A stretch of DNA of 64,000 nucleotides from a plasmid: the NCBI RefSeq assembly GCF_054482525.1, contig NZ_JBTHVG010000004.1; one strand, written 5' to 3'. The notes beneath the pieces are model-generated. The model was not told the origin of the DNA and ran no database searches. It worked only from the letters and a program-made list of their open reading frames with translations. Position numbers and translations under genes: made by a program. The number at the start of each line of letters is the position of its first letter. Position 1 is the first letter of the stretch. This document shows, piece after piece, positions 3,416 through 60,692 of the stretch.

Positions 3416-3770
3416 TTTACTCCCCCGCTCCGGCGGGGGTATGGCCTGCCAGGCCGCCGGAAAACCCTGGCAGGCTTACGCCTGCCTGAAATGCAGGAGG
3501 GCCGCGCCTGCGGCGCTGCCCTTCCTGCCCGTCATGGTGTGAGGCATTTTTCTGTTATGTCGTTTCTGTTGTTCTGATTTCCGGAGGCGGGGACACCTTC
3601 GGCTCCCGGCTGCCTGGCGGCATCCGGTCGTCAGGCCCGACTCCGACAGGCAGCTGCTGGCGCACCCGCCAGTCTCCGCCGAACCCGCTGGCGCGGTTTC
3701 GGGCTGCCGCTACGGTCCGATGTCTGAAAAACCAGGCTTGCAGCGACCGTTCCGGTCGCGCCGCCCCTGT

Positions 3771-4120
3771 CGCGCCGGAAACGGCGCTCCCTGCACACCT
3801 GACGGTGTGTAAGGCCACTGCGCCTGATGGCGCAGTCAACCCTTCCGCCGCCACCCCTGCGGCCTGTTTCCCGCTGTGGACTTTCCGGGGGCTGGAGTAA
3901 CCACATCCCGTTTCAGCAGTCCAGGGGAAGATATACCGTCCACAAAATTTTTAGCCATAAACCCGGCAAAAAATTTTGCGTCCGCCCCCGGACAGCTGCC
4001 CCGTGACGTGGTGACGGACGCCCCATCGGAAAGGTCCACTGCGGGGAGAAACCCCGAAGAAGTGGACGGCAGAAGGGGCTTTCGCCCCTCCGGGGAGCAA
4101 CCGGTCGGCCCGGCGACCTG
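3771..4120 (+). promoter_or_regulatory. Frpo/ssi-like structured repeat, copy 1 (putative single-strand promoter)
   Basis: About 350 bp non-coding block repeated at 6637..6990 with internal palindromes (CACACC-TGACG-GGTGTG; CTGCGCC-TGAT-GGCGCAG); ends about 20 bp before ORF 4144. Confidence 0.55.
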
Positions 4121-4143
4121 ATTCAGCAGAAGGAGACGTTTTC

Positions 4144-4578
4144 ATGACTGTCAGCAGCACGATTTCCGTTTTTTGCCGCGACGGGGTGTTCCGTACCGTT
4201 TACTGCCACCTGCACGGTGAGCCGACCTGGAACGGTCGCATCCTGCATACCCACTATGCCACCGGTCAGCAGGCCGAAGCCCTGGTTGAACACGGTGATA
4301 TCCGTTGCCTCGGTCCCCGTTGCGACAAACCCGCCGGGCATACGCTTCAGAACCCGGTGGACGGTGTGACGGCTTATTACGGACGTGACAGTGGTTTCCG
4401 GATGGACAGTGAGGCGCGTGAGTACCGTTCTTTCAGGGAGGCTATTGCCACTGAAAGCACTGAAGAGGTGCGCTTCCATTATGTGTTCATCGACGGCTAC
4501 TGGAAGGTGATGTACCGCACGCCGGAAGGCTGGAAGATGAAAGCGCTCGCGCTGGCACTGCGTCGCTGTCCGAAATGA
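4144..4578 (+). CDS. leading-region hypothetical protein (144 aa) downstream of ssi-like repeat
   Basis: Clean ORF with GGAG-type RBS (agaaggagacgttttcATG); no recognisable domain. Confidence 0.6.
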   Translation: MTVSSTISVFCRDGVFRTVYCHLHGEPTWNGRILHTHYATGQQAEALVEHGDIRCLGPRCDKPAGHTLQNPVDGVTAYYGRDSGFRMDSEAREYRSFREAIATESTEEVRFHYVFIDGYWKVMYRTPEGWKMKALALALRRCPK

Positions 4579-4670
4579 AAAAAGGCAGGGCGATAAACCC
4601 TGCCTCTCTCCGCCGGCGCTTCCCCGCCAGGAAGTCCGGCATCTCAATCACTATCTATGGAGATTATGCC

Positions 4671-11560: not shown

Positions 11561-11682
11561 CAGATGAAGCTTTATTAGTTTCGTTATAGAATGAAAAAAT
11601 CACCAATATTAAATATGGGTGTGGTGGTAAAAATAAATATGTTAGGCAATGTTAAGTAACTCTATTGACGGAATCATGTTTT

Positions 11683-12501
11683 ATGAGCACTAATCTTGCT
11701 TTTCGTTATGCAAGTGTTGAAACTTTTTTTAAAATGATTGAAAACCAAGAATTATGGTTTACCGATCTTCGGAATATGAATGATCCGGAAGAATACTCGG
11801 CTGGCTATGAAATAGTCAAGAGAATAATAAATGAGGAATTTCCAGATTGCATTAGACTATTAGAAGAAGTATCACCTAATAAGATAGACGAAAATTTTAA
11901 GATATTAATTTGTTGTTTCTGTTCTGATGGAGATCGTTCCAACATGTGGAGCGAGTATGGTGATAATGGCAAAGGCGTTGCTATTGGTTATGATAAGAAT
12001 ATTATAACCCAAAATCATATTTTGGCTCGGTTTGAAGAACATTTTCAACCTATTAGTGGTAGAGTTGTCTTTCATCCTGTTATCTATTCAGAAGAACTGT
12101 TTCGAGAATATGTAAGAAACGCATTGCATGATTATATTAATCGCTCAAGTTTAAATATTAAATATGCACGTGGCATACTTCATGCACATCTTATCAGACT
12201 ATGTTCATTATATAAGAGAGAGAGTTTTGAATGTGAAAATGAGGTCCGAGGACTTATTGAAGTAGATGAACGTACATTCCCACCATACAAACTTGAAAAA
12301 CGTAGTACTGATTACGGAATTGCGTATTATACTAAGGTGAAATTTACCTGTAACAATATTACGGCAATTAGAGAGATTGTGTTGGGGCCTTTATTTGAAC
12401 AATCTGATGAACAGCTTCGGTCAAAATTAGATGATCTAGGGTTAAAGAATATAAAAATTAGACGTTCCATATGTACCTACAATGATGTGGTTAATCTGTA
12501 A
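11683..12501 (+). CDS. AT-rich cargo gene, DUF2971-like protein (about 272 aa)
   Basis: Markedly AT-rich codon usage compared with flanking nikB/trbC; motifs FTDLRNMNDPEEY and CCFCSDGDRSNMWSEYGDNGKGVAIGY recalled as DUF2971-like (not searched); terminator follows. Confidence 0.6.
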   Translation: MSTNLAFRYASVETFFKMIENQELWFTDLRNMNDPEEYSAGYEIVKRIINEEFPDCIRLLEEVSPNKIDENFKILICCFCSDGDRSNMWSEYGDNGKGVAIGYDKNIITQNHILARFEEHFQPISGRVVFHPVIYSEELFREYVRNALHDYINRSSLNIKYARGILHAHLIRLCSLYKRESFECENEVRGLIEVDERTFPPYKLEKRSTDYGIAYYTKVKFTCNNITAIREIVLGPLFEQSDEQLRSKLDDLGLKNIKIRRSICTYNDVVNL

Positions 12502-12504
12502 TCT

Positions 12505-12540
12505 GAATGCTGGTATCTAGTACCAGCATTTTTAAATAGG
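12505..12540 (+). terminator. rho-independent terminator after the DUF2971-like gene
   Basis: atgctggtatctagtaccagcat hairpin followed by ttttaaa. Confidence 0.55.
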
Positions 12541-12573
12541 TTTTTTGCGGGAAGACCAAAGTATGGTCACAGT

Positions 12574-17252: not shown

Positions 17253-17420
17253 AAGGATTGTTGCAGATACGAAAGTCGTTAGAATAGCCGCGGACGCTTG
17301 AGGCTGTATGCCGAAAGCGTTTTGTGGATGGTATACAGCAGAAAGCCCCCTGGAGATTTTTTATCAATCAACCAGGGGCTCTACTGTAATGCCTAGACAA
17401 CATTATAGTAGCCTGATAAT
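17253..17420 (+). repeat. partial duplicate of the pnd leader region (no toxin ORF)
   Basis: About 170 bp that matches 18672..18845 with roughly ten differences by eye, then diverges just before the position of the pndA start. Confidence 0.6.
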
Positions 17421-17461
17421 TTAGATATGTGTACATCCTACCGGAAAAGATACTTTTCAGG

Positions 17462-18553
17462 TCATTTATCAATGGGTGTTATTACCACCGGTAGTTTGTT
17501 TACGTCTTCTAAATTAACTGGTACCGGAGGTAACCATATTAATCTAGGTTTACGCTCATGGGCTAGTTCTGGTTTCTTACTTCCTGTCCAGTATGTATGC
17601 CAGTGTCCCCGGCGTATATGAGGACGTTTGCTACCTATTGTTGTCCGCTCTTTCCCTGTGGGTTCTGCTTGGCGATATTGCCGTATGGCTTGCCCCATTC
17701 GAATACCAACGTCCCACTCCCGAATGTTTTGTGCTGGTAGTTCATGGTGAGTGTGAACATGCTTTTTGTGCTTTTCTGACCGTTTAAATTGATTTTTTTC
17801 TTTTATATCATTGATCTGTGAACAGATATAAAGCACCATTGATATCTGTGCGTTAAGAAGATTAAACTCCCTGTCTCTGAAATCTTTGAGCTTTTCGTTA
17901 ACTGTTACGACGACTTCACCATCGATACACTCCATCTTTCTGGAGTCAAGAAGTCCTTCACGAGAGTCCTTTATTCTGATGATATTATTGACGACGTCAA
18001 CATCCTTTTCTTTTAGCCCTGTAGTTCCTTGACTTTGTTTCAGATCATCAATAATGAAAAGCCGGATAATATTTCCATTATTGTCCAAAAATGGATAAAA
18101 GAAAAATCCATGTATCGGATAGGACGTAGGAAGTATAGTATGCAGATTTTCGGCTGAAACATAGATACTCCATGAAGGGAGTTCCTTGAGGATCTGTGCA
18201 GGAATGTTATCAACATAGGTGTTAGCCACATCACTGATGATGTCCTCGCTTAGGCGATAAATTTTCTTTGTATAGCGCCAGTATATAAAACACAAAATAC
18301 TGTGTGGTGACGATAATTCGTTTCCATGAAATAAAGATTCTAGTTTAGAAGCCAGTTCTTCATTTTTTTGTTGGCTCTGGAGACGACTCATTAGTATGCG
18401 TTCTTCATCTTTTCTGTCGATAAATAATAATGGATTGTCGCTGCGTTTTTTATTTCGGCATGCAAAGATTTGCTCTTCAAGCCCAGGGATTGTGTTGATG
18501 ACTTTTTTTATCTTTTTCAGGAAAATAGGTTGTTTTAACTGCGACATTTCCAT
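17462..18553 (-). CDS. AT-rich cargo gene, 363 aa protein of unknown function
   Basis: Clean ORF with AT-rich codon usage unlike neighbouring trbA; basic His/Trp-rich C-terminal block (RPHIRRGHWHTYWTGSKKPE...RKPRLIWLPPVP); lies between the two pnd-leader copies. Confidence 0.65.
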   Translation of the reverse strand: MEMSQLKQPIFLKKIKKVINTIPGLEEQIFACRNKKRSDNPLLFIDRKDEERILMSRLQSQQKNEELASKLESLFHGNELSSPHSILCFIYWRYTKKIYRLSEDIISDVANTYVDNIPAQILKELPSWSIYVSAENLHTILPTSYPIHGFFFYPFLDNNGNIIRLFIIDDLKQSQGTTGLKEKDVDVVNNIIRIKDSREGLLDSRKMECIDGEVVVTVNEKLKDFRDREFNLLNAQISMVLYICSQINDIKEKNQFKRSEKHKKHVHTHHELPAQNIREWDVGIRMGQAIRQYRQAEPTGKERTTIGSKRPHIRRGHWHTYWTGSKKPELAHERKPRLIWLPPVPVNLEDVNKLPVVITPIDK

Positions 18554-18671
18554 CTCCTAAGGGGATTCTTTTATTAACTAAAATCAGCATAACATGCGTT
18601 GTTGTGAAGTAGAGAACCATGTATTGGGTTGGTTGTTAACTTCAAAAACAACGCTGAATCATTCAAATAAT

Positions 18672-44897: not shown

Positions 44898-45722
44898 TTA
44901 CCAGGGTAATAAAGACGTATTAAATAAGCTAACAGGTAGTATTTGCCCTGTAATAAGGTTTCCGGCAAGGCCAGGTCTCAACGTAACGCGTCGCAAAGAC
45001 ATTGTTGTATTCTGCCTGGTTGTATATTCAGTTAACCATTTTCTTTTTTCATCGTTCAGAAGTGTTGGTGATAATGATAGTGCCGGATATATTACAGAGC
45101 CATTTATTTCTTTTTCCTGTCTCAATATTACCCCGCAATATTCTCTTTTCGTGTTTCCTGCGAAGGGGAAACTATGCCAGAAAATAACTTCAGTGTTGCT
45201 GCTATTATTAATAAGCATTCTGAAATTATCAGCAGTATCTGGCCATTCACCGGACAACGCTATCGGATAGTTTTCATGGCCATTCAGCCAGTCCGGATTG
45301 AGATTAAAACATTCAGCAAGATGTTCGAGAGCGTCAGCTGAAAGATAGTCTGCAAGTCTGGCCGGGTCCTGTATAACCGTGGAGCGGATATTCCATGGCG
45401 ACAGCAATGTTGCCAGTAATGGCGCATTTATATCATGCGACAGCATGATGTATTCAATTCTGCTTATTATGTTTCCTGTGGTGTTATCCGCAGGCATAAA
45501 CATATTATGAAGAGCATCCTCAAGCAGGATTCGGGTTAAATCAGCGGTGGATATGGCTAATTGTTCGCTCATTATCCCCAGAACTTCTCTTACCCCTTGT
45601 GGGTAACGGACCTGCAGAGGTGTCGGGTTTATCTGACGACCGTTGATGAGTTTTTCGCCGATTGCTTTTTTGTCCAGCGAGAGCATCATTCGGGCCGCAA
45701 TACCGGTCGTATTCAGTCTCAT
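44898..45722 (-). CDS. traE: TraE
   Basis: 274 aa, first gene of the block downstream of rci. Confidence 0.6.
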   Translation of the reverse strand: MRLNTTGIAARMMLSLDKKAIGEKLINGRQINPTPLQVRYPQGVREVLGIMSEQLAISTADLTRILLEDALHNMFMPADNTTGNIISRIEYIMLSHDINAPLLATLLSPWNIRSTVIQDPARLADYLSADALEHLAECFNLNPDWLNGHENYPIALSGEWPDTADNFRMLINNSSNTEVIFWHSFPFAGNTKREYCGVILRQEKEINGSVIYPALSLSPTLLNDEKRKWLTEYTTRQNTTMSLRRVTLRPGLAGNLITGQILPVSLFNTSLLPW

Positions 45723-45872
45723 TGTTCCTCCGACTGAAAAAGTCTTTTCAGCTCATGTGGTTATTGTATCTTCGGTGTTTTTTCTGGTGAAACGAATAAT
45801 TTCGATCATGCAGATCGAATGTGTTTGGCGAGTTGTTGCAACTCGCCTTTCTGTATGTGTTTTGAATGATGT

Positions 45873-47027
45873 TTACAGCGGGGTGCTGCCCGGGTTCAGA
45901 GGGCAAATCATAATGTAGTCAGGGTCGTTAACAGGTAACGCTCCGGGAGATGGGACACGTTCGCCTTTCTGTGCTGCAATGGCCAGTGTACGCAACAAAA
46001 CCTCACTGGCGCGGTGAACTGCTTCCTCTTTCGTTGTGGCAGTGACGTGAAGGTTATCAAAATCACCGATCTCAATACGATGCGCTTTCTGCCCATTTTC
46101 TTCATCGATGGTCGTGATATGGGCAGGATACGGCACAAACCATGCTGCCACTTTTTGTGTCTGCCGCCGGCGGGCATCAAGCTTACTGACCAGTTGCCAT
46201 GCACGAAGATGAGTATACCGTTTCAGCATATTCATGGAACGATGTCCTGATATTGCAGCAATCTCCATTACATTCAGGCTACCCAGTTCGAAGAAGCGGC
46301 TTATTGCTTCATGCCGTAGATCGTGAAAATGCAGGTCCTCGATGCGAAGTCGTTGTGTGGCTATTCTCCAGGCATTTTTAAAGCCGGATGCGGTGTAATC
46401 AAAAACATTGCCGTGGAGATTAACGGGCATCATCTGAAGAAAGTTACGGGCACGTCTGGACAGAGGAACATCCCGTGAGTGACCGTTTTTGGTTTCAGGT
46501 AAATGAGCCACACCGTGGCGCAAATCAATGTGTTCCCAACGTAAGGCCAGTATTTCGCCCTGCCGCATGGCTGTTTCAAGGGCAAGATGGAAAATGACAT
46601 ACAACATCAGATTTTTTTCGCGGAAATAGCGAGAAAGGCGACGTTCTTCTGAAGACGTTAGCCGACGATCTCGTCCGGAGGATACTTTCGGCTTGCGAAC
46701 CAGTTCAACCGGGTTAGTACGACAGGTTCCCCATTCAACACGAGCAATATTGAACAGAGATGACAGAAGGGCGAGTTCAAGACGTACAGTATTACCTGTA
46801 ATGGCTTTACCCGTTCGGGGGTTGATTTCTGCTAAACGAACGTCTCTGTATGTAGCAATATCAACGGTTGTTATTTCGTCCATATTCCGAAGGGCAATGG
46901 GATATCGCTTGATAACATTGCTCCGGTAAAACTCCTGTTGATGCCCTTTCTTGTGAACAGAAACTGTTTTCAGGTACTTATCCAGTGCGCGTGACAGGGA
47001 CATTTTACGGATGCGTGGAGACGGCAT
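45873..47027 (-). CDS. rci: Rci shufflon-specific tyrosine recombinase
   Basis: 384 aa from the internal Met ([20 protein letters not shown]...); integrase-family catalytic residues (R...HDLRH...Y); adjacent to sfx repeats. Confidence 0.9.
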
Positions 47028-47077
47028 GCTAACCTCAAAAGAGGAAAAAATAATGCCAACAATCATTCTCTGCAAGC

Positions 47078-49014
47078 GTGCCAATCCGGTACCTGGCGTA
47101 AAAGCAATTCTGGTAGTACGGTGATAACTGGTCGTATAGCAAATGGTCAGCAAATACCGCTGCCAACAGGATTTTCTGCCAGTCAGTGCTCATGGAGTGT
47201 GAGCAATGCAGAAAACCCTCAAGGTTGGAAGCCGAATTACTTTGCTGGATCAGTTGCAACTTATGATGCAAATCGAATTGTTAAATGTGGTTTTTATGAT
47301 GAATACAATTTCCATAAAGGGACATTTAGAGCTGATTTAACCGGAAAATGTAGTTATGTCGTCGCGTGTCAGAACTGAGATTAAATTGCTGGCGCTGCTG
47401 GCCTACGTGCCAATCCGGTACCTGGAGAAAGGTAGGATCTGGTGAGCTTCAAATTGCTACAGCACAGGCGACAGGTTGGCGCTTTCCTGGAGCAACAGCT
47501 ACCTGTCCAACTGGAAAACGTGTTACAGGTGGCGGCGGAATATGCACCTCACGAACTGGTTACATATGGCTTACCAGGTCATTCCCATCAGCCAATAACT
47601 CATGGTCGGCTGCGTGCGATACAACCGAAGATCAGAATGGTTCAATAACTGTATATGCCATTTGCCAATAAGCTATTTCAAGCAAGTAATCTTCATAAAG
47701 TAGGACGAATACTGTGTGTAGTTTTTGGCTTGCCAAGTCATCTCGCCGTTAGAGTCAGGCATGTCAATAGGAACGACTTCTGTTTCTGCCATTTCACGCC
47801 CGTCAATACGATAGGTGTTAATACACAGTTTAAACCTCCCTAAGACCTGTGTGTTTTTGGGATATAACGTAAATGTTTTTATATTCGTCCATATCGACGC
47901 TGATGATGATTTCCAGGTACCGGATTGGCACTGGCCTACGTGCCAATCCGGTACCTGGGGCGCTCCTAAAACTCAATTCACAACGCAGACCTACAACATA
48001 GCTAAAAACACTCGTAATTTAAGGCTCGGGGTCCATGCATATTGCTCATGGACTTACCTGAATGGCTCACCCTTTGGTGGTTTTCAACAGGTATATTCCG
48101 ACCAAAACAACGTTTGGTATGTGAGTAATTATGCTTGGGGAAATTATGAGTCTGGTGGGACCATATCAGTCACATGCCTCAATCTTCCTGGTGCTGGAGT
48201 TTAATTAAAGGGGCAACAGTAGGCATCGACATGTTCCTCATCAACACCATCACCAATACCGTACATGCGTGTTCCAGTCATAATGTATCCAGTCGGACAT
48301 TGAATCGGCTTGTAATAGATCGAACCACCACTCTTACCGCCGATAAAGTGATTCATTGCTACGGATGATTTGTACCAATTACATGCTGAGTAATTAATTT
48401 TATTACCCCCTGACCACCGACCGGATTGGCACGTAGGCCAGTGCCAATCCGGTACGTGGAAGACTTCTGGTTCGCTCAATGGTTCTTACACAAACTTAGG
48501 TTCACATAGAGGTTCATTCTCAGGGCGGAATTCAGGGGGCAGTACATTGTTTATTTATGCATCTGGAGGTAATGGAGGATCTGCCGGAGGTGCATGTGCA
48601 AATACATCCCGACTGCAGGGATATGTTGGTGGGACGCTAATTAGCGTGAATGCCAGCAATAACCCTGCATATGGAAAAACAGCCTTTATCAGCTTTGCTG
48701 TACCTGCAGGTACTTCCTATCAGATAACATCCTATCCAACAGAAAATACATCATGTGGTGCCGGGGTATTTTCAGTATTTGGATATCAAACTTAATTGAG
48801 CGTTACACACGACGCAATACAACCTGTCTTATGCTCGTATTTGTACCATTTACGTGAACCTGCTGGGCTCTCAACTACCTGGCAGTAGTGGGCATCCTCT
48901 GCGTTGCCCATTCTGGCAATGGCACAGAAGTCGAATTGCCCCAGATAACCTGTGGTGGAAAGCTGAGTAACTTTGAGTTTTCCACCTATTGTCCTCCACG
49001 TACCGGATTGGCAC
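47078..49014. mobile_element. shufflon multiple-inversion region with seven 19 bp sfx sites
   Basis: sfx core GTGCCAATCCGGTACNTGG at about 47078, 47408, 47940, 48441 (one orientation) and about 47913, 48413, 48996 (inverted); each encodes C-Q-S-G-T/R-W and is followed by alternative PilV C-terminal reading frames on both strands. Confidence 0.9.
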
Positions 49015-50096
49015 GAAAGTATTGCCCCTGTATTATCGCGGCCTACAAGGCCGTTAGGCGAACATGATGCGCCAGCAACGGCAGTTCTTTCCAGTTGTAA
49101 GTATTCACCAGTATAAAGGCGACCATCAGCACGAACAGTACCGCCTTTCACCTGACCGCCGGTATAGATGCCCTTGTTGTTTACACTTCGAACCCATGAT
49201 CCGTCGGACATATAAAATCCGCCACCGTGAGTTTCATTGAGCCAGCCTTTGCTGTTACGAGTAATTAACCAACCATTATTACTTCTGATATCACCGCCAG
49301 CGGTGACATTTACGTCAAAGTTTCCGCTATTGCCTTTTACCTGACCGCTGAAAGTGCCATTTACACCATTCACATTGCCGCTGAAATTACCAGTCTGGGC
49401 ATTTACTGCCCCAATGTTATTCAGGTTATTTGATCCCATATCAATGGCCGTGTGCATTTTGTTTAAGTCAGGGCGACCATTGACCTGGAATCTGTAAAGA
49501 CGATCAGTGTCCTCTGCTGCACCACTAAGTTCATCTGTCGATAACAGTACGGCAATATGCCCGTTACCGCTTTTGGCACCATAATTACTTAAAGCTACTG
49601 ACCAGGAACGTAATGCACCTGTGGCTGTTTTGCCGTCCTGGATATATCCACCAAGACCAGTGGTAATATCCTTAGCCATCTGGATAAGTGCTTTCACTGG
49701 ATAAGGGGTGCCACCACTGGATACAACCATTGCCTGTAGTAATTCCGGGTTTTGGGTGTTTCGAACTACATATGCCTGTAACCGCTGCCCCTCGCTGTTT
49801 GTCTCAGTAAAGCCGCTGGACAAAAAGCCGGTATTTTTCAGCATGGTTGTCGTGATAACGGCAGGGGTTGTTGTGGTACTACTGGCCTGGAGAGTTGTGT
49901 AGTTTTTCCCTATATAAGAGCGGGCTGCACTGGCCCAGTTGCTGACAAGACGAGCTTCAGCCTGCCAACCTTTGGTTTTTAAATAGTCCTGCCATATGCC
50001 TGCACCCCAGGCAACTATGATCATAACAATCAATAAAGCCGCGCCAATTTCCAGCGATGCCCAGCCTCGGTCATATTTTTTCATCAGATTACCCAT
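48792..50096 (-). CDS. pilV: PilV thin-pilus adhesin (minor type IV prepilin) with currently joined shufflon C-terminal segment
   Basis: 434 aa; prepilin-like N-terminus; reading frame crosses the sfx at about 48996..49014 (…SCQSGTWRT…) into the adjacent invertible segment. Confidence 0.85.
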
Positions 50097-50767
50097 AGTG
50101 GTTGATAAAGATTATCCAGTAGCAAAAGGACATGGCCAAGACACAGCCATGGACCCAGTGGGCCTTCTTTATGTCCTTTTATGCACCATGTTGAATGCCA
50201 TAAGACAAATCCTCCTGCGCCCAGCAACACACTCCATATGGCGTTATATAGCCCTGACCATGCGGTAATACCTGCAATAAGCCACAGGTCTCCTGTGCCA
50301 ATATTAAGACGATGGCGGTTAACCAGTTTATGCAGACAGAATAAGACAATTGCGGCAGAGACAATTTCTGTTGCACGGAGCCACCATATATCAGTTGTGA
50401 TTTGTGATAATATTCCAGCGATTAAAAAACGCCTGGTGAATGTACCCGGTAAGAGGCCTGTTAGTGCATCCGTTACTGCCATTTGCAGCATGAACGAAAG
50501 AATAAGAACAGCATGAATACGGTAGATAAGTGGGGATGACGATAAAATAATTAATGCCACAGCTATACTATATAGCCATATTCCTGACAGAACTGCAGTG
50601 TGTGTCTTATACCAGAGATGTTCTGTATCAGATAAAAAATAACGAACTCTGAATAACAGAGTTCGTCCAATAATGGAAAATATGAACATCAATGGGAGGA
50701 TATAAACAGGGGAGAGACTTATGCCTACGATTGTCTGCATTGTCTGCCTCCCTGCCCGGGAAGGCAT
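50084..50767 (-). CDS. pilU: PilU prepilin peptidase
   Basis: 227 aa polytopic membrane protein; operon position. Confidence 0.75.
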
Positions 50768-51285
50768 ATCCCTTTCATGTCACGATAAATTCTCCATACT
50801 TTATTAGCATATTGCTCTCTTGTTTCATGTCTGTCCTTACGGAATCCGGCATTGTATGACCCAAGGCAATTCCAGCTGACGCCACATATCTGAAAATGTC
50901 TTGCCAGTATCCAGCTTCCTATATGGATATTAAGACATGGTTTGGTAATTAAATCCTCAGACTTTTTGATTACGCCCATCTTTATAAGCTTTGGAATATG
51001 GGTTGAGTTTATTTGCATCAACCCATAATCCGTACTACTGGCTTTGCCTGTTTTTCTGTCCTTATTTATGTTAATTGCGCCCGGCTTCAATGAAGATTCC
51101 CCGGCAGAAATGGCCTTCAACAATAATGGTTCAATTTGATAGCGTGCGCCGGCGGCGGCAAAGCAATTGTCCCACTTGTTAGTCCAGATTTGTTTGGGGG
51201 CGATGTATGAAGCTCGGGCGGGATAAATAAGAGAACAAAGCAGGATTAATGAAATAAGTCTGAGGGGCACTTTACCCCCGGACAT
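50725..51285 (-). CDS. pilT: PilT lytic transglycosylase
   Basis: 186 aa with signal peptide and SLT-type motif (AISAGESS…YGLMQIN). Confidence 0.75.
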   Translation of the reverse strand: MSGGKVPLRLISLILLCSLIYPARASYIAPKQIWTNKWDNCFAAAGARYQIEPLLLKAISAGESSLKPGAININKDRKTGKASSTDYGLMQINSTHIPKLIKMGVIKKSEDLITKPCLNIHIGSWILARHFQICGVSWNCLGSYNAGFRKDRHETREQYANKVWRIYRDMKGICLPGQGGRQCRQS

Positions 51286-51294
51286 TAAAACTCC

Positions 51295-51909
51295 TTAGCC
51301 ATTGATGGTGAAGATTAGTTTGTTTGTACCGGTGCTGCCATTATCAGCTGTGCATTGCGCACTGGCTTCTTCAGTAGTGACTTTTCCATCACTGTGAGCC
51401 GTACTGTTCAGGGTAATACCGTTAGTTAAACCAGTACGACTGATTTGTGTGGCAATCTGGATACAGGCATCCTGTGGGACTTTTTCATAGGTGACGGTAA
51501 AACCATTGTTGAAACCTGATGTTGAAGCCGGAGCAACAGTTACGGCACCGCCCCATGAGTTATAGAGCGTTGCTGTACCTGATGATGGAGTACCACGCAC
51601 TGTCATGGTCTTGGGTACGCCACCCATCTGAATGAGAGCACCCGTCATTTTGGCTCCACTGGTAAACGTATATCCATCGCTACCTTTTAGCAGCCCCTGA
51701 GTACTTGTGATGATTGTCTGTATGTTCGAACTTTCATTTGCCACACCGGTTCGTGAACGCAACATATACAATCCACCAAAAACAAGGGCAAGTACGATAA
51801 TTACAACAAGTGCTATTGCACCCTGTTCCATAATACCCCAGCCTTTGTCATGAGACGTTTCTTTCTCATTTTTCTTCAGAACGTTAGCATTAATATTTTG
51901 AATTAACAT
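51295..51909 (-). CDS. pilS: PilS major type IVB prepilin
   Basis: 204 aa with long leader and hydrophobic pilin N-terminus (WGIMEQGAIALVVIIVLALV). Confidence 0.8.
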   Translation of the reverse strand: MLIQNINANVLKKNEKETSHDKGWGIMEQGAIALVVIIVLALVFGGLYMLRSRTGVANESSNIQTIITSTQGLLKGSDGYTFTSGAKMTGALIQMGGVPKTMTVRGTPSSGTATLYNSWGGAVTVAPASTSGFNNGFTVTYEKVPQDACIQIATQISRTGLTNGITLNSTAHSDGKVTTEEASAQCTADNGSTGTNKLIFTING

Positions 51910-51925
51910 AAATACCTCGTTTTAT

Positions 51926-53011
51926 TTAAATACTACCCATACTGTTGTCGCCAATAGACTGAATGTCTACAACGGCCATGACCAGTAACAGGAGTGACAT
52001 GACAAGAAATATCAGCATAATTAAACGCACAACAGCTGCTCGTTTTTTTACACGCTCCAGCGTTTGTACAAGCCACCGTTGGCCATAATTGCCGATTAGC
52101 TCCGTTGCACCATCTCCCTGTAATAAAGACAGAAAGTTGGCAGACTCCCTGGAAGGGAAATGATAACCGCACTGTCGTAAAGCCAGCCCAAGGTGATCCC
52201 CCTGGCGGACGCGGTAAATAATGCTGTCAAGGCGTGTACTTAACCATGGTGATGCAAATTCCTGAAGAACGTTCAGTGAGTTGAGCGTTGTCATTTTGGC
52301 TTTCAGAAGTGCAGCCATATTCAGGAGGAATGCTGCCCCCTGTATATCCTTATAAATACTCCATGGCATTATATTGTCAGCCAAAGAGCGGCTTTTCCAG
52401 TTTTTCAGAGACCATGATATTACACCTGTGACCACTGCAAAAAGAACGGCACATATAGCGCCGTAATTATCGACAAACAAAGATAATCCATAGAGAAAAC
52501 CAAGAGCACCACTCCATGAATCAGGGGAGCTTATTTTGCTCAGTACAGGTATTAGCTCTGTATTAAGAACATATAATGTCCCCGTCATCATGATTAACAA
52601 TCCCACCGGGTAAATAGCCATTTGCCATATGGCCTGATGGAGTTGCTTTTTGGCATCTGTAAGCGTGGTGGCAAATTGTAATGCATCCACAATGGAACCA
52701 CTTCTTATTCCGGCACTGATTACTGCAGCCTCTTCCTGGGGAACCCATAAACCAAGAGTATATTCCAGAGAGTTTTCGCCACTGTTTTCACGAAGAGACT
52801 CAATACAGTCTGTGGCCAGTTCAGCAAAGGGGTGCCATTTTCGTCCAAAGTCTGTCCAGGCATCCCGCATCTGTTCCAGTGCGGTCTTTAATGGCTGTTT
52901 ATTTTCCAGCAGAAAACGCAGAGCTTCGTAAAACTGCACCCTGTAGGGGGCGCTGAACGTTTTTCTGACAATGAAACGTCTCAGCCGTTGACTGAAATTC
53001 ATTTCACGCAT
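51926..53011 (-). CDS. pilR: PilR inner-membrane platform protein (GspF-like)
   Basis: 361 aa polytopic membrane protein. Confidence 0.75.
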   Translation of the reverse strand: MREMNFSQRLRRFIVRKTFSAPYRVQFYEALRFLLENKQPLKTALEQMRDAWTDFGRKWHPFAELATDCIESLRENSGENSLEYTLGLWVPQEEAAVISAGIRSGSIVDALQFATTLTDAKKQLHQAIWQMAIYPVGLLIMMTGTLYVLNTELIPVLSKISSPDSWSGALGFLYGLSLFVDNYGAICAVLFAVVTGVISWSLKNWKSRSLADNIMPWSIYKDIQGAAFLLNMAALLKAKMTTLNSLNVLQEFASPWLSTRLDSIIYRVRQGDHLGLALRQCGYHFPSRESANFLSLLQGDGATELIGNYGQRWLVQTLERVKKRAAVVRLIMLIFLVMSLLLLVMAVVDIQSIGDNSMGSI

Positions 53012-53023
53012 GTTGTTCTCCTG

Positions 53024-54577
53024 TTAGGCATCATCGATGCTGAGGCGTTCGTCTTCGTCCAGAGGGATGATTCTGTCGGCTTCAAGAGGGTCCACCAGGC
53101 CTTCATTGATACGGCGAAGCAGATGCTCCACACGACTGATGCCATGCATGTTTTCAAGCCAGTATTTACGTGCTGCAACTTTGCCGCGTGTTTTCAGAAT
53201 CTGAAATAAGCGATTATCAGGTTCTATCACTTCAGCAATTACGGTCCTGCCGGTGAGGCCTTTACCTATTTCACCGCGCTTTCTGCCGTTAATAATTACG
53301 TCGTGATTACAGTCGGAGCATCCGTGAGGATTTCGGAACCAGATATTATCTGTACTGCAGAGTGAATCTTTATTGCAGTGCCGCTCAAGGTAAGCGCGGT
53401 CGTCTTCGCTAAGTTCAGGTACTCGCTTTTCCCATGGAATACGGCAGGAGGGACACAGCGTTGGTACAAGGCGCTGGCTTATCATCCCAATCAGTAATTG
53501 CGCATCACAAATAAGATCGGCATTCATACCCATCGTAATCATTCGCTCCGGTATACCCAGAGCTGAGTTTGTATGTAATGTCGTCAGAACGATGTGACCG
53601 GTCTGAGCCGCGTAGGTGGTTGACATCATCGAGACAAGATCGCGCATTTCCCCTTCCATGATGGCATCGGGGTCAAGTCGCATTGCCGATGAAATAGCAC
53701 GACTCCATGCCAGTTTGACGGCCTCTTCGTCGGATTTGTCACAGATAATCGGGGTTTGTGTTGCCCCCAGTATCTGTCCTTCCAGCGGATCTTCGATCGT
53801 CAGCAGGTGTCGCCCCTGATTATCGTCAAGATATACACGGCAGGCACTGCGTAACGTTGTTGATTTACCCGAACCTGTTGGACCAGACAGAACAATTTTC
53901 CCTTCCGGGCGGCGCAGCATGACGTTCAGCAACCGGATTTGCTCCGGTATAAAGCCCAGTTGCTTAAACGTGGGAACTTTGTCTCCGTCATCGGGTATCA
54001 GGCGCATAACCGCAATCAGACCATCTCCCGTAGGTCTGTGACTGTATCGTGCACCAAATATTCCTATTTTTCGCATTAATTGTGGGGACAGGCGCGCATC
54101 CTGTTCCCTTTGAGGGAAGAAACTGGTTTCAGTGACATCAGCCATTGACAGAATGGCTGTTGCGCAAAGTGAATAACCCAATGCAGGTTGATCTTCATCT
54201 ACAGTCTGCAGTTCACCGAATATTCTCATGCGAACTTTGAAAATAGACTCTGAAATTAAAAAATGAATATCCGAAGCACCAAGTTTTCTGGCCGTTTCAA
54301 AATAGGAGAGAACTTTCTTCTCACTTTCACTGACATCTGCAAGATCTTTCAGATGAATAATCCGTTCTTTCGGACCTTTATTTTCATCATCCTGACCGGC
54401 TTCCTGTAACTCAGACAGCGAGACTACTTTTGGGGTGATGTCAGGGTATAACTTTAGCAGTTCCTGGAGATTACTCTGTACGTCAGGTCTTGTTCGCTGA
54501 TTTGTTTCGATGAGAATTTCATGGGTGTCTCCCCGGGATATAAAAAGGAGAGCATCCTTCAGATTATATTTGTCCAT
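53024..54577 (-). CDS. pilQ: PilQ assembly ATPase (GspE-like)
   Basis: 517 aa with Walker A GPTGSGKST and a Cys cluster. Confidence 0.85.
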   Translation of the reverse strand: MDKYNLKDALLFISRGDTHEILIETNQRTRPDVQSNLQELLKLYPDITPKVVSLSELQEAGQDDENKGPKERIIHLKDLADVSESEKKVLSYFETARKLGASDIHFLISESIFKVRMRIFGELQTVDEDQPALGYSLCATAILSMADVTETSFFPQREQDARLSPQLMRKIGIFGARYSHRPTGDGLIAVMRLIPDDGDKVPTFKQLGFIPEQIRLLNVMLRRPEGKIVLSGPTGSGKSTTLRSACRVYLDDNQGRHLLTIEDPLEGQILGATQTPIICDKSDEEAVKLAWSRAISSAMRLDPDAIMEGEMRDLVSMMSTTYAAQTGHIVLTTLHTNSALGIPERMITMGMNADLICDAQLLIGMISQRLVPTLCPSCRIPWEKRVPELSEDDRAYLERHCNKDSLCSTDNIWFRNPHGCSDCNHDVIINGRKRGEIGKGLTGRTVIAEVIEPDNRLFQILKTRGKVAARKYWLENMHGISRVEHLLRRINEGLVDPLEADRIIPLDEDERLSIDDA

Positions 54578-54587
54578 ATCACATCAC

Positions 54588-55040
54588 TCAGAAAGTAAGG
54601 GTGGTGCCATCACTTAACGTGACGCCAGACAATGAGATCGACTTCACCGTGACGGATGTACCCGGAAGCTGGCTACCAGTGGTGACGCTTGTCTGACGTC
54701 CATCAGCCATGCGAAGAACGGCATGAAGACGTTTATCTTTGCCGTTTATTTCCATAATAACGGGCAATTCCTTTCTGTTTTTAGATGTCGGCTGCTCTGA
54801 AACTGATGGCAAGGAGGCAGTCACACCAGAGAAACCTGAAACAGTTTCTGATGACAGATTAACATCTGATTCTTCGAGTTGTTTCTGTAGCTGTGCGCCC
54901 TGAACTTTTGCCTGTAAAAGAATATTCCGGTTTTGTTGTGCTTCAAGTTCTCCTATTGTGACAAGAGGTTGTGTTGTTGCAAATGAAAAACCAGAGAAGA
55001 AAAATATGGATGGAATAATGAGTAATTTACCTGGACGCAT
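54588..55040 (-). CDS. pilP: PilP
   Basis: 150 aa with signal peptide; operon position. Confidence 0.65.
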   Translation of the reverse strand: MRPGKLLIIPSIFFFSGFSFATTQPLVTIGELEAQQNRNILLQAKVQGAQLQKQLEESDVNLSSETVSGFSGVTASLPSVSEQPTSKNRKELPVIMEINGKDKRLHAVLRMADGRQTSVTTGSQLPGTSVTVKSISLSGVTLSDGTTLTF

Positions 55041-56322
55041 ATATATGACCTTCTGAGGAATAACTGAAAGTACCGCCGTTTAATTCAAAATGGATATTGC
55101 TCAGACGAACGCCGGTATCCTGAAATAAAGGGAACAACTCATCAGGATTTACAGGCGTTGATAAACTGAACTGATATTCTTTCCATTTCTGAACAGGGGC
55201 TGGTTCACCATCGTTACCTGGTAATGGTTCCTGTATGGCTATTTCATTAATGGCCGGCGTTAACTGTTTTTTCTGAAACCACGTGAACACCCGCATCAGT
55301 TGTTCTGAGGGGGCAGGGACTGCCTCATCCCTGCGGGGCAGGGAAGGCAGTGGCCGGGTTACAGAAGCCAGGCGTGCACCATCTTTAAGGTTAAAGTCAG
55401 GAATAACATTAAAGATTTCTTTGCTTCTTGCCAGAAAGCCTTCAATAGTTCCTCCTGGCTGTCGTTCGTAAATCAGTGTGAATGTCTCGGGAGTACATGT
55501 TCCACCGGTAAGTTTCCAGCCTTCTAGCGCGACCGGTGATGGTTTTCGAAGGTCCGCGCAGGCTTTCAGAAAATCACTGATTACAGGTTGTGACGCCCAT
55601 GGATGCGGGAGCTCCGGTGGTGGTTCGGGCTTTTTAAACTGTAATCTTGCCCGTGCAGCTATCTCCTCGGCGGTCGGTCCTACATCAGGCTCTGGCTGAG
55701 TCATCCAGAATACTGTGCCTGCGCCGGCTGCTACTAAAAACAGTACGGCAGGAAGTGTGAATTTGCTGCGATTGCCGACAGTAAGTTTGCAACGGCGGAG
55801 GTCTGCTGATGATAACCGGGTAATAATACTTTCCCAGTTATCAGGATGTTCCAGAGACGATACAACCTGCCATTTTTCGGGGGGCTCTTCGTTCATCGCC
55901 AGAAAAAGGCTGACCTTTTGGGCAACGTCGGCATCATTTCCTGATAAGTCAGCCATAACGGCAGGCTGGCCATTAATGGAAGCAAGGAATAAGAGCTCCT
56001 TATCGCTGTACCGGAAGACACCGTATCCATTTCTGACCCATGAGCAGAAAGCCAGTGCCAGGGAAAAATAATGATTGCGTTCTGGCCTGGTCAGTATTCC
56101 TGTGCCGGTAAGGCGGCTGATCTCTCCACGGGAATTTCTGCTGCCTACAGTCACTTTCAGGGAGGTAAGCCGTCTGGGTTTTACATGAGACTTGTGTTTA
56201 TGATGTGAGGGGACGCGCTGTTTTTTTACGACAGGAGTCCATTTAAGACAGGCAGCCCACACGCGATGATTTACTTTAGGATCTGCGAGAAGCACTACCG
56301 GGTTGATATCTTCATCAGCCAT
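55027..56322 (-). CDS. pilO: PilO
   Basis: 431 aa; operon position. Confidence 0.65.
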   Translation of the reverse strand: MADEDINPVVLLADPKVNHRVWAACLKWTPVVKKQRVPSHHKHKSHVKPRRLTSLKVTVGSRNSRGEISRLTGTGILTRPERNHYFSLALAFCSWVRNGYGVFRYSDKELLFLASINGQPAVMADLSGNDADVAQKVSLFLAMNEEPPEKWQVVSSLEHPDNWESIITRLSSADLRRCKLTVGNRSKFTLPAVLFLVAAGAGTVFWMTQPEPDVGPTAEEIAARARLQFKKPEPPPELPHPWASQPVISDFLKACADLRKPSPVALEGWKLTGGTCTPETFTLIYERQPGGTIEGFLARSKEIFNVIPDFNLKDGARLASVTRPLPSLPRRDEAVPAPSEQLMRVFTWFQKKQLTPAINEIAIQEPLPGNDGEPAPVQKWKEYQFSLSTPVNPDELFPLFQDTGVRLSNIHFELNGGTFSYSSEGHIYASR

Positions 56323-57997
56323 TATTGCCTCCTGACGGGAAAGTCGGGGTAATGATGATCACAAGCGTGCTGCGTTCATTTTTCCCGGTTTGTGAACCAC
56401 CAAATAATGGATTTGCTGGCGTAAACGTACCGGCTTTACTTGTCGTCGTATTGTTCTGATCGAAACCAGTAACGACAAGTGATTGCCCTTCTTTCAGATT
56501 GACCTTCTGGCTCAGTGAACGCAGTTTGGTATATGGCATTTCGATGTAACTGTTTCCGTCTTTTGACGTAAAGCTACGGATAGTCGGGGGATCAGACAGA
56601 TTAAAGTTCATCTGCAACTGGAGATTGCCTGTTTTCTGAATTAAAGGCAGCAGGGTCATATTGAATCCAGTGGTGATCATGCCCGGTGTTAATGTTGTTG
56701 TTGCCCCTACATCCGTAGTCGTAGTTGTTGCTGACTGGGCGACGTAAACTGTCTGATCTGCCATCTGGATAGGTACCGGCGTCAGGTTTGTGACCGTGCT
56801 TTCTTGTGAAGTTACAACGCTGACATCGCCTTGTTCACTCAGTGCTTTAATCAGAAGGCTGGAACCGCTGAATTTGGCGGCATTCCCTGTTGCCGTATCC
56901 AGAATTGATACGCCTGCAGATGTAGCGCCTGTAAAATCTCCGCTTGCATTGTTCAACGTTGCTCCGGCGGAATGTAGCGATTTGTAAACAAGGTTCCAGT
57001 CCAGACCGAACTGCTCGTTTCTGGTATTGCTGACGCTCAGAACCTGTACGTTCAGGGCTACCTGGCGGTTCATAATACTGTTTTGTTCGTCCACATATCG
57101 TGCGACGGCTTCCTGGACAGCAGGAGTATCAGTGACTGTTAGCGTTGAGCTCGATGCAGATAACCAGTAACGGCCTTTTTCTGGTGTCAGCATCGCTTCA
57201 ATAGTTTTCCGGATGTCTTCATACAGGTCGTATTCCTGACCGACGGTTGTGCTCTGAGAGGACGTAGCATCACCGGATGCTGAGTTATCCTGGCCTCCTG
57301 TTGCCCCCATTGTGCTTGTTGAGCCAGAGCTGACGCTGGAACTGCTGCTGGTTTTGGTGTTCAGCATATGAAGTGGATACGTTCTGGTTTCAGTCAGATA
57401 GAATACAATCCGACCATTATCCATGCGCCAGTACAGACCGCTTCGGCTGGCCATCAAATCCAGAAGACCATTGATATCTCCCTGCCACATGAGGTTATTC
57501 AGCGTTAATGGCTGAGTGGAGGTAGTCATTGTTGTGCTGCCCAGGCTGCTTAACGGCAGACGACCATTTTCATCAGGTGCTGGTAGTGTCCCAGTCATCT
57601 GGCGGGTAGCGCCTCCTTCAAGAGTTGAATTGGCTGCGTCAGGGGTGATGATTACGGGGATGCCGCATACGGCAGTAATACGTTGCCCCAGTTCCTGTAG
57701 AGTGATCTCTCCTTTTCTTGCCTGCGTGATGTAGCAGGCCGGAGCTGTTTGTTTTTTCTCTCTTGATACCTGAGCGACCGGAACAGGGTTTATCCATTGA
57801 TTATCGAGCCAGGTAAGAGCCTGTGATTTGCGGGCAGAAAGGGCTGATACCTTTTCCCGTGCATGTGCTGAGTCCTCCTGTGCTTTTTTCTGCATTTTAT
57901 TGATTTCGCTGAAAGTACATCCGGAGATGGAAAGAGCGACGGCGATCATGCAGGGGAGCACCGCCAGCTTCATTGAACGCTGGTGTGATTTTTTCAT
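56315..57997 (-). CDS. pilN: PilN secretin-like lipoprotein
   Basis: 560 aa, lipoprotein signal (ISGCT), Ser/Thr-rich region and secretin-like C-terminal domain. Confidence 0.75.
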   Translation of the reverse strand: MKKSHQRSMKLAVLPCMIAVALSISGCTFSEINKMQKKAQEDSAHAREKVSALSARKSQALTWLDNQWINPVPVAQVSREKKQTAPACYITQARKGEITLQELGQRITAVCGIPVIITPDAANSTLEGGATRQMTGTLPAPDENGRLPLSSLGSTTMTTSTQPLTLNNLMWQGDINGLLDLMASRSGLYWRMDNGRIVFYLTETRTYPLHMLNTKTSSSSSVSSGSTSTMGATGGQDNSASGDATSSQSTTVGQEYDLYEDIRKTIEAMLTPEKGRYWLSASSSTLTVTDTPAVQEAVARYVDEQNSIMNRQVALNVQVLSVSNTRNEQFGLDWNLVYKSLHSAGATLNNASGDFTGATSAGVSILDTATGNAAKFSGSSLLIKALSEQGDVSVVTSQESTVTNLTPVPIQMADQTVYVAQSATTTTTDVGATTTLTPGMITTGFNMTLLPLIQKTGNLQLQMNFNLSDPPTIRSFTSKDGNSYIEMPYTKLRSLSQKVNLKEGQSLVVTGFDQNNTTTSKAGTFTPANPLFGGSQTGKNERSTLVIIITPTFPSGGNNG

Positions 57998-58010
57998 GAA
58001 TATATCCAGA

Positions 58011-58448
58011 TTAGTTAACGTAGACGACAGAACCAGCAGTAATGCCTGCCGGGGGTGTCAGACCGGTTGCAGTTCCTGATAGCCAGGTGAGTTGCCCGTT
58101 TTGGAAGATCCCTATTAGTGCAGAACCACGACTTTTTGAACGCAAAGTTTCAACAAGTCCTGGTTGTTCAGGCATCCATACCCACAGACGTCCCTGTTGT
58201 AACTGATGTTTAATTCGGGAGTCCGGAGTGACAGGGAGAGCCAGTTTATCTGAAGAAATTACTCCGTCCTGCTGGCCTGATACGTATCTGATATCATTGA
58301 TTCTGTTAGCAATCATTAGTATCTGACTTGCCCATACAGACGCACTTGCATATTGCTGGGCGTTCGTGGTTTCAGACATCTGCTGATTCTGGTAGCTTCC
58401 AGTGATAATCAGAATGGTCAGGCCGACGGCCATGACCAGCCATCCCAT
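58011..58448 (-). CDS. pilM: PilM
   Basis: 145 aa; operon position. Confidence 0.6.
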   Translation of the reverse strand: MGWLVMAVGLTILIITGSYQNQQMSETTNAQQYASASVWASQILMIANRINDIRYVSGQQDGVISSDKLALPVTPDSRIKHQLQQGRLWVWMPEQPGLVETLRSKSRGSALIGIFQNGQLTWLSGTATGLTPPAGITAGSVVYVN

Positions 58449-59515
58449 TAGCGACCATCCCTTGTATCAGAAACTGTAATGATGCACTGCATGCGGGAGG
58501 CCTGTGCGTATAAAGGTTTTTGCGCGGTCCGATATAACTCAAATACCTGCTCCATGGCTGATTCAAATGATCCCCGGAACATCAAAGGCGCATCAAGACG
58601 GTAATCGGTTACAGAAAGTGGCCATATGACCATCCAGTGCGTTGATGCCATGCTTTCGCATTTTGTTTCTTCTGCCCACTTAATAATGTTTTCCCTTAAT
58701 GTAGTGCCTGCCGGCGCACGCCACTCTTTACCCTGAGATACCGGTTTGACAGGTGTCCCGGTCATGAGTGGGATAGACTTGACTGTGGAGCCGGTCGGAG
58801 TCGGGATTGCAGCGGGCGTAGACGGAGATACGCTGTTTCCCCTGAATGGGTTTCGTGGTTTGTTCTGGCTATTTGCTGTCGTTGAAGACTCCGGGGAAGT
58901 GGATGTGGTTACCATGGCTGCTGGCGAGATAGTGGTTGCCGTGTCCTGTGCCGGTGCAGTAGCCGATGTTGTGACGGTCAACGTTTTATTATCCCAGTCC
59001 AGATGGCCCCAGAGGTGTTGTTCTTCCAGCAACCGGTTCAGAGAACGGGTCCACTGATCATTGGCAGACCATGAAACCAGTTTGGTATTCAGTTTGGGCG
59101 TGGCTGCATTCTCTTGTCTGAATTTCCATCCTTCCGGTAGTAATGTTTTTATCCACTGACTGACGGTCCGGTTACGGGCCGTCGGCGATAGTGTTACAGG
59201 GGCGCTACCAGGCTTGCCTGTAATGATTAACCGGGAGAAATTCTGACTTATTGTTGGTGAAGGTAACGGTCGGGATTCGCTTACTGGCTGTGCTGTTTTT
59301 ACTGTCTCTGGCACGCTGACTCTCGGGGGCGGAGTTATTTTAGGTGGAGAAAGTCGTTGTTGCGTAAGTGCCAGGACGCCAGCACTCTCACTGATTTGTC
59401 CGTCAACAAAAACCAGAGCAGGCGTATCTGATGGTGCCACGTTATTGCCGCCGGAAATTCCGGCACAGCCGGACAATAATGACGGCAGTATAAGTGTCAG
59501 ACAGTTTTTTTTCAT
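58448..59515 (-). CDS. pilL: PilL lipoprotein
   Basis: 355 aa with lipoprotein signal (LSGCAG). Confidence 0.65.
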   Translation of the reverse strand: MKKNCLTLILPSLLSGCAGISGGNNVAPSDTPALVFVDGQISESAGVLALTQQRLSPPKITPPPRVSVPETVKTAQPVSESRPLPSPTISQNFSRLIITGKPGSAPVTLSPTARNRTVSQWIKTLLPEGWKFRQENAATPKLNTKLVSWSANDQWTRSLNRLLEEQHLWGHLDWDNKTLTVTTSATAPAQDTATTISPAAMVTTSTSPESSTTANSQNKPRNPFRGNSVSPSTPAAIPTPTGSTVKSIPLMTGTPVKPVSQGKEWRAPAGTTLRENIIKWAEETKCESMASTHWMVIWPLSVTDYRLDAPLMFRGSFESAMEQVFELYRTAQKPLYAQASRMQCIITVSDTRDGR

Positions 59516-59548
59516 AACGGAGACTCCGTGTTCGTATATACGAGTTTG

Positions 59549-60142
59549 TTAATTGATGTGAGGCGGCTGGAGAGGACGAATGACGACTGTCATTCCGTCC
59601 GAATGCAAATGCGGGAAAGACCACTGAAATAAGAGATATATAAAAGGAATTGATAATTTTTCGTACAGACTTGTTTTCCGTGGGTATGTAATAACTGAAA
59701 AACTCAAATCATAAGATTTCAGTCTCTTTATAAGTTTATTTATTCTTGCTGGAGTAAAGAGATGTGAATGCATGACAATGATTTCATCATTATTAATTGC
59801 TTTTGATATCAGAGAAAGCAATACATCCCAGTGTTTCCTCATTGACTTCGGGCAACGTGTGTCAGCATAGGGGCTAAGATGTATAGTTGATTTCTTGCTT
59901 CCCTTTTTCTTCTTCACAAAGAATGTGAAGTCGTATTTAGATGCAGACCTTACAATAAGAAGTACACATCTGAAAAGTAGTGGGAAAATGCAAATCACAA
60001 CCACCACACAGAAATATAACATATAAGGCAATGATAAGTTGTCAGTGTATGGATAACGTAAGTATTGCCATGGGGTAGTGATGTACAGACAAAGCGTACA
60101 CCAAAGCAACCAGAGATATAATGGTACGTTATTATTTTTCAT
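59549..60142 (-). CDS. pilK: PilK
   Basis: 197 aa AT-rich membrane protein; operon position. Confidence 0.55.
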   Translation of the reverse strand: MKNNNVPLYLWLLWCTLCLYITTPWQYLRYPYTDNLSLPYMLYFCVVVVICIFPLLFRCVLLIVRSASKYDFTFFVKKKKGSKKSTIHLSPYADTRCPKSMRKHWDVLLSLISKAINNDEIIVMHSHLFTPARINKLIKRLKSYDLSFSVITYPRKTSLYEKLSIPFIYLLFQWSFPHLHSDGMTVVIRPLQPPHIN

Positions 60143-60266
60143 GTTGGCTGAGGCAGGCGACTAAAATAACAGACTAAGGAGGATTAACTGTTTAATTCTT
60201 TGGAACAAAAAAATGCAGTTCCTGATCATCACACACCATTGAATAAACATTTTGCTTCGGTTGCGT

Positions 60267-60521
60267 TCATGATAGCCAGTCCTGTAGATGCTGATGGCGG
60301 GAGCTGCTGCCCTTGTGCCAGCGGCAGTGGCTGCCGGGAGCACGCTCCAGTCGGAACAGAAATCGGTTGTCGCGTAGTACCACCACGAGACAGTTATCCG
60401 GCGTGCAGAAACGTCGGGCAAGCTCATCGGGGTCTGTCGGTGTTTTCGTTGAAAACAGCCTGCGTTTGCAGTGTGCGTCGACGACCAGTATTTGCAGTCG
60501 TCCGGGATGTTGCTGTGGCAT
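60267..60521 (-). CDS. pilJ: pil operon small protein (pilJ by position, about 84 aa)
   Basis: Internal Met (MPQQHPGRLQILVVD...); naming by order only. Confidence 0.4.
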   Translation of the reverse strand: MPQQHPGRLQILVVDAHCKRRLFSTKTPTDPDELARRFCTPDNCLVVVLRDNRFLFRLERAPGSHCRWHKGSSSRHQHLQDWLS

Positions 60522-60692
60522 CAAAGACTCCTTCCGGAACGGGAAAAGAAGCAGCTGTACCGTCATAACTGCACGTACCGGTTGCGAAAAAACGGCACAA
60601 GCGAGTAGTGACAGAAAGAATGTCGGAAACGGCAGGAAGGGCGGTACAGGCTGCGAAGACTGGAAACGGGGTATGCCGGGGATTACACATCC

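Follow-up and report, generated by a model that had tools for sequence, protein, structure and literature searches.

Two questions are raised by the DNA between pilV and rci in this plasmid: whether it forms a complete shufflon of the R64 type, and which PilV variant it specifies in the molecule that was sequenced. Both were addressed across the whole 64-kb stretch of DNA analysed here (hereafter, the window), and the present analysis itself established how the sequence is laid out, which frames are open, how closely it matches R64 and what the combinatorics allow. Judged from its sequence, the region is almost certainly a complete and apparently functional R64-type (IncI1-complex) shufflon between pilV and rci. 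We found no evidence in the sequence against an R64-type shufflon, with the proviso that one consensus sequence cannot reveal inversion or state fractions.

Seven sfx sites between rci and pilV

The window was searched with the 19-mer GTGCCAATCCGGTNNNTGG, allowing ≤2 mismatches. Exactly seven sfx sites of 19 bp were recovered, every one with 0 mismatches, four on the + strand and three on the - strand; shuffled sequence gave a mean of 0.01 matches. The first-pass annotation had counted seven sites, and that number stands, as does its remark that the two rci-proximal sites share one orientation (both + strand, at 47078 and 47407). The same sites were recovered independently by a repeat finder, along with two head-to-head pairs 8 bp apart. 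When three mismatches were allowed in a search of the window for an eighth, cryptic sfx, the single extra match (at 53926) was at chance level, with 0.72 expected.

Like the shufflon of R64, the region thus has many 19-bp sfx in both orientations, each built of the 7-bp core GTGCCAA and a 12-bp right arm. [quoted passage not shown] The variable triplet is ACC at four sites, ACG at two and CGG at one, and translation from base 2 of each 19-mer reads CQSGTW at six sites and CQSGRW at 48414. The 12-bp left arms are not conserved and are the source of site asymmetry. They are TTCTCTGCAAGC, CTGCTGGCCTAC, GCACGTAGGCCA (twice), GCACTGGCCTAC (twice) and GGCAATACTTTC, and R64 has the same set.

Starting from rci, sfx 1 (47078..47096, + strand, GTGCCAATCCGGTACCTGG) has its left arm TTCTCTGCAAGC outside the shufflon and opens the D' tail, and sfx 2 (47407..47425, + strand, GTGCCAATCCGGTACCTGG), in the same orientation, opens the B' tail. 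Next are the head-to-head sites sfx 3 (47913..47931, - strand, GTGCCAATCCGGTACCTGG) and sfx 4 (47940..47958, + strand, GTGCCAATCCGGTACCTGG), opening the B and C tails, respectively; the left arms of both are formed by the 8-bp spacer TGGCCTAC between them (47932..47939) plus 4 nt from the core of the opposite site. The C' tail is opened by sfx 5 (48414..48432, - strand, GTGCCAATCCGGTCGGTGG), whose triplet CGG gives CQSGRW and whose sequence is identical in R64. A second 8-bp spacer, GTAGGCCA (48433..48440), is inverted relative to the first and separates sfx 5 from sfx 6 (48441..48459, + strand, GTGCCAATCCGGTACGTGG), which opens the A tail. The two spacers are mutual reverse complements. Finally, the pilV-proximal sfx 7 (48996..49014, - strand, GTGCCAATCCGGTACGTGG) has as its left arm GGCAATACTTTC, the end of the pilV constant region, and is the junction now in use.

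Four segments and seven PilV C-terminal tails

The seven sites bound four segments of 310, 487, 455 and 536 bp plus the two 8-bp spacers, and all seven open frames of 73-117 codons that each enter one PilV C-terminal tail. Segments A, B and C hold two convergent partial ORFs each and segment D holds one, giving the seven C-termini. Segment D (310 bp, 47097..47406, + strand) has the lone tail D' (47079..47378, 99 codons from the sfx Cys), and its far end provides the left arm CTGCTGGCCTAC of sfx 2. Segment B (487 bp, 47426..47912) is read on both strands into two convergent tails, B' (47408..47671, + strand, 87 codons, with the RKVGSG tail) and B (47930..47673, - strand, 85 codons, the KSSSAS tail). 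Segment C (455 bp, 47959..48413) likewise has the C tail (47941..48204, + strand, 87 codons, the GAPK tail) and the C' tail (48431..48201, - strand, 76 codons). On segment A (536 bp, 48460..48995, both strands) the A tail is silent (48442..48795, + strand, 117 codons), and the A' tail, of 73 codons on the - strand, is the currently expressed end of pilV. The claim that alternative C-terminal frames are read on both strands agrees with these data, as the six sites other than the one in use open silent frames of 76-117 codons. A scan of 45700-50300 for promoters and terminators that would allow independent expression of the silent tails found none above shuffle expectation.

One of these tails had been singled out in the first-pass annotation as a minus-strand frame at about 47661..47912 without an ATG. 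Such a frame is real and missing from the ORF track, and by elimination it is the B tail of the shufflon. Its stop codon lies at 47675-47673 and not at about 47661, and it has four ATGs, contrary to that description, the earliest at 47792 and leaving a 39-aa ORF. The frame, which enters from sfx 3, is open from 47972 (upstream stop at 47975-47973), and no ATG, GTG or TTG occurs in it between that upstream stop and 47792. Among the seven tails, B alone drops out of ORF lists with a cut-off of at least 40 aa, because an early start codon is lacking and not because ATG is absent altogether. Since shufflon tails are never read from start codons of their own, the late ATG of the B tail is biologically without consequence.

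To name the tails, full-length R64 isoforms were built by joining the R64 constant region to each tail and were then matched to the protein collection. All seven are exact protein entries, found on 193 to >1000 public contigs, and the switch has therefore been sampled in every position in nature. UniRef/Swiss-Prot clusters assign the 474 aa form to A (SHU1_ECOLX, "Shufflon protein A"), the 430 aa form to A' (SHU2_ECOLX, "Shufflon protein A'"), the 444 aa form with the RKVGSG tail to B' (SHU4_ECOLX, "Shufflon protein B'"), the 433 aa form to C' (SHU6_ECOLX, "Shufflon protein C'") and the 456 aa form of R64 to D' (SHU7_ECOLX, "Shufflon protein D'"). The KSSSAS tail of 85 codons and the GAPK tail of 87 codons were named B and C, respectively, by elimination, via the shared segments and the annotation of one record, CP034252, which calls the GAPK tail "shufflon protein C" and agrees for C and C'. 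The same record labels the B' tail "shufflon protein B" (fetched locus 1993-2304), and LC567088 labels an A'-fused gene "pilVA" (fetched locus 3293-4597). Given these conflicts, naming from record annotations alone was rejected as unreliable and the UniRef/Swiss-Prot clusters were used. In public records, the label of most silent tails is "hypothetical protein", and the starts given to them are artificial, placed far enough upstream for the frame to cross the adjacent inverted sfx.

pilV is fused in frame to the A' tail

As now assembled, pilV (48792..50084, - strand) encodes PilV-A', a 430-aa protein made of the 357-aa constant region, CQSGTW and the A' tail. The underlying ORF (48792..50096, - strand) is unbroken through the sfx at 48996-49014, with the product starting at 50084. 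The constant region is thus in frame via the proximal sfx into a tail. This confirms the earlier proposal that pilV is fused across the sfx at about 48996 to the 48460..48995 segment, since the ORF from 50084 to 48792 is continuous and in frame through that site. The fused segment is A in the A' orientation, and the molecule is in the PilV-A' state. The 430-aa product is an exact database sequence (P0003) named "shufflon system ... pilus tip adhesin PilV", and its constant region matches Pfam PF04917 Shufflon_N (E = 4.2e-186). NCBIfam had no model match for PilV or PilU.

The order of segments from pilV is A, C, B, D, then rci. Written out with the sites, it is sfx7, A (A' expressed), sfx6, spacer, sfx5, C (C' in the pilV direction), sfx4, spacer, sfx3, B (B in the pilV direction), sfx2, D (D' toward pilV), sfx1 and rci. 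The shufflon lies at the end of the pil operon for a type IVb thin pilus, on a conjugative plasmid of the I-complex. The genes pilU to pilI upstream and traE/traF downstream are collinear with R64, and the nearest plasmid records are typed as conjugative, MOBP and MPF_I.

The recombinase gene

At the other end of the shufflon, rci (45873..47027, - strand) encodes the shufflon-specific tyrosine recombinase, with 384 aa from the ATG at 47027. Residues 122-275 match Pfam PF00589 (E = 6e-24) and are followed by ~110 further residues, which form its C-terminal extension. NCBIfam returned just sub-threshold Xer matches for Rci. The catalytic motifs are intact. The protein differs from R64 Rci by one substitution, P75A (383/384 identical), and is identical to those of CP140506 and MW881232. 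In a mechanical ORF list, rci is over-extended to 426 aa from the TTG at 47153, which lies beyond sfx 1 in segment D; from its true start, the ATG at 47027, it has the 384 aa of R64 Rci.

Comparison with R64 and other shufflons

The R64 shufflon is reportedly the subject of Komano et al. 1987; NC_005014 (also AP005147) was used here as the R64 reference. It has seven 19-bp sfx with the same core and right-arm consensus as the window, and its shufflon likewise lies between pilV and rci, with the flanking genes traE, traF and pilU common to both. The segment-by-segment comparison proposed in the first-pass annotation gave segment lengths identical to those of the window (310, 487, 455 and 536 bp) and tails that are all 97.7-100% identical. 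Five tails (D', B', B, C' and A) are 100% identical to those of R64, and the others are at 97.7% (C) and 98.6% (A'). The earlier reading of the locus as an R64-type shufflon is therefore one on which sites, segments, tails, Rci, Pfam Shufflon_N and synteny all agree. The differences are 11 substituted residues of 357 in the PilV constant region, the D' sfx triplet (ACC in the window, ACT in R64) and the arrangement, as the R64 order from pilV is A (A expressed), D, C, B, rci, whereas that of the window is A (A' expressed), C, B, D, rci.

Some other IncI1 shufflons are related but reduced. The three-segment shufflon of ColIb-P9 and the pST12-type shufflons with A and B only share their Rci/sfx system and pilV constant region with the window (PMC5430464, PMC7695270), but they are without D, or without D and C, whereas the window has the full four segments. 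IncI2 shufflons (R721, TP114) follow the same principle, with an Rci-type recombinase, a 7-bp core plus 12-bp right arm and convergent tails (PMC9045228). Their constant region differs (345 aa in TP114), as do their variable triplets and their segments, with a BD fusion in R721 and eight tails in TP114. An IncI2-type identity for the window was ruled out by the constant region, the segment composition and the triplets.

Beyond the shufflon, the window is collinear with R64 through the leading region, nikAB, trbABC, the tra genes, rci, the shufflon and the pil operon. The pil region (48991-60240) is 94.3% identical to R64, compared with 98.9-99.4% for tra/trb (19701-47096), and the backbone is therefore mosaic relative to R64. 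Identity to R64 is 90% over 60250-60685, and the window lacks ~680 bp that R64 has between pilI and traD. Between nikB and trbC, the window has an insertion of ~1 kb compared with R64 (11551-12564). Its ORF (11665..12501, + strand) encodes a 278-aa DUF2971 protein (Pfam E = 6e-10), which also matches PDC-S31, a candidate single-gene defence family in PADLOC (E = 1.4e-11). A further insertion of ~1.25 kb beside trbA (17420-18669) has an ORF for a 363-aa protein (17462..18553, - strand), which had no Pfam or NCBIfam match and a non-significant PADLOC match (E = 0.0086).

Inversion model and the place of the captured state within it

Rci activity, the core crossover, the inversion-only rule and the LPS-based specificity of PilV tails are taken from the literature. 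According to published work, crossover takes place in the core, the right arm moves with the tail and only inverted pairs recombine (PMC11852207, PMC9045228); mechanism and function are also treated in PMC5430464 and PMC8213034. The PilV variants are reported to be adhesins at the tip of the pilus that determine recipient specificity during liquid mating by binding the lipopolysaccharide of the recipient (PMC5430464, PMC10516633). On this basis, Rci would exchange strands inside the 7-bp core (GTGCCAA) of two inverted sfx and flip all the DNA between them. Each event would rejoin the 357-aa constant part of pilV with one of the seven tails, in frame through CQSG(T/R)W, because the 12-bp right arm moves together with the tail. 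The tail at the pilV-proximal site would be the one expressed because a promoter and a start codon are available only there, leaving the other six as silent cassettes.

The locus was modelled as blocks between the seven cores in which only inverted site pairs recombine, and the states were enumerated by breadth-first search. In this model, 288 segment arrangements are reachable (1152 with both 8-bp spacers scored for orientation as well), and the proportions of modelled states that express the seven tails are comparable. The captured state is valid under the inversion rules and within the reachable set, and the R64 reference arrangement is three inversions away. Leaving out an 8-bp spacer inverting alone, ten single inversions lead from the captured state to nine distinct outcomes. 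Four single events change the adhesin, namely sfx6 x sfx7 to A, sfx4 x sfx7 to C, sfx2 x sfx7 to B' and sfx1 x sfx7 to D', and expression of B or C' takes two events each. The earlier suggestion that the rci-proximal segment can reach pilV only by a multi-segment inversion is matched by the D' route of the model, a single sfx1 x sfx7 inversion of all four segments together. Segment D alone is inverted by no allowed move, because it has a right arm at one end and just a left arm at the other.

Segment D was matched by only 656 of the ~1850 shufflon-bearing PLSDB records. It is flanked by direct sfx repeats, and CP034252 keeps a D remnant with a damaged D' sfx (fetched locus 2565-2888). Deletion by Rci between direct sites is reported to be inhibited. 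The frequent absence of D and the remnant in CP034252 may reflect occasional loss over evolutionary time.

Is the arrangement an artefact, or the shufflon a relic?

A query consisting of the shufflon alone matched 1852 plasmid records in PLSDB, of which ~9-11 align with the window as one collinear piece. This share of ~0.5% is about the expectation for one state in 288. Collinear matches also occur in several RefSeq E. coli plasmids, of which NZ_CP195779.1 is the closest at 99.8% in one piece; none is 100% identical. CP140506, which was checked site by site, has the same segment order and differs in the orientation of the first 8-bp spacer and in the D' triplet only; despite the shared order it is 7 inversions from the window in a model where the 8-bp spacer cannot flip alone. 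The captured arrangement is nothing special, being one ordinary state of 288.

The arrangement could still be a product of assembly, in which isoforms mixed in the culture led to a consensus or chimeric route across the 19-bp repeats that may differ from the dominant molecule or from any real one. According to the literature, rearrangement of the IncI1 shufflon is continual and a recognised cause of assembly trouble (PMC5430464, PMC7695270, PMC8213034); shufflons are heterogeneous within a clone and often misassembled (PMC5430464; Brouwer 2015 and 2019, as cited in passages of PMC7695270), and deposits with defective structures exist (MW881232 and CP034252, with degenerate or missing sites). 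In the window, however, the four segments and seven tails are each present once at the full R64 length, each junction joins one left arm to one right arm, and the state is reachable, three inversions from the R64 reference. Its order also recurs in the ~9-11 independent PLSDB records and in the RefSeq E. coli plasmids, although a minority or chimeric state is still conceivable. We consider an assembly origin unlikely.

Less probable still is that the shufflon is a frozen relic, its sites and cassettes kept but inversion ceased and PilV-A' effectively fixed. Activity is unreadable from a single sequence, and both the P75A difference of Rci and the ACC triplet of the D' sfx (ACT in R64) would suit such a reading. 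Against it, an identical A75 Rci is found in plasmids whose shufflons are in other states (records L004 and L007), the catalytic motifs are intact, all seven cores and right arms are perfect, and plasmids with near-identical DNA (99% or more) have been deposited in many arrangements. An apparently functional R64-type shufflon, recorded in its PilV-A' state, remains the preferred reading.

The D' sfx triplet and the use of the locus in annotation

In the D' sfx (47078-47096), ACC in place of ACT is a synonymous Thr codon. The ACC of the window is also the triplet of the B, B' and C sites, whereas the ACT of R64 is unique there. The D' triplet is ACT in R64, pCMY-136 and CP140506 and ACC in pCH56 (the position was checked in R64 and the three fetched records). 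A 93-nt D' query of PLSDB found 123 records at ≥99% identity and 524 at 95-99%. The 95-99% band would fit ACC as a minority allele, the position of the mismatch being that checked in R64 and three records only. If the triplet affects the recombination of site pairs, the ACC lineage could select PilV-D' at another frequency than R64 does, shifting its recipient range, and, relatedly, spacer orientation could be a hidden record of inversion history; we regard these ideas as speculative and rather doubtful.

The R64-type shufflon is already known, and the first-pass annotation was right to call it established biology. The finding raises no biological question. The value of the finding is practical and lies in annotation. 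Because segment order changes within a clone, the order of this 1.9-kb stretch is unfit for plasmid typing or outbreak comparison. The pilV gene here encodes the A' adhesin variant, and the six promoterless cassettes, one of which lacks a usable start codon, belong in an annotation as shufflon tails and not as hypothetical proteins or pseudogenes.
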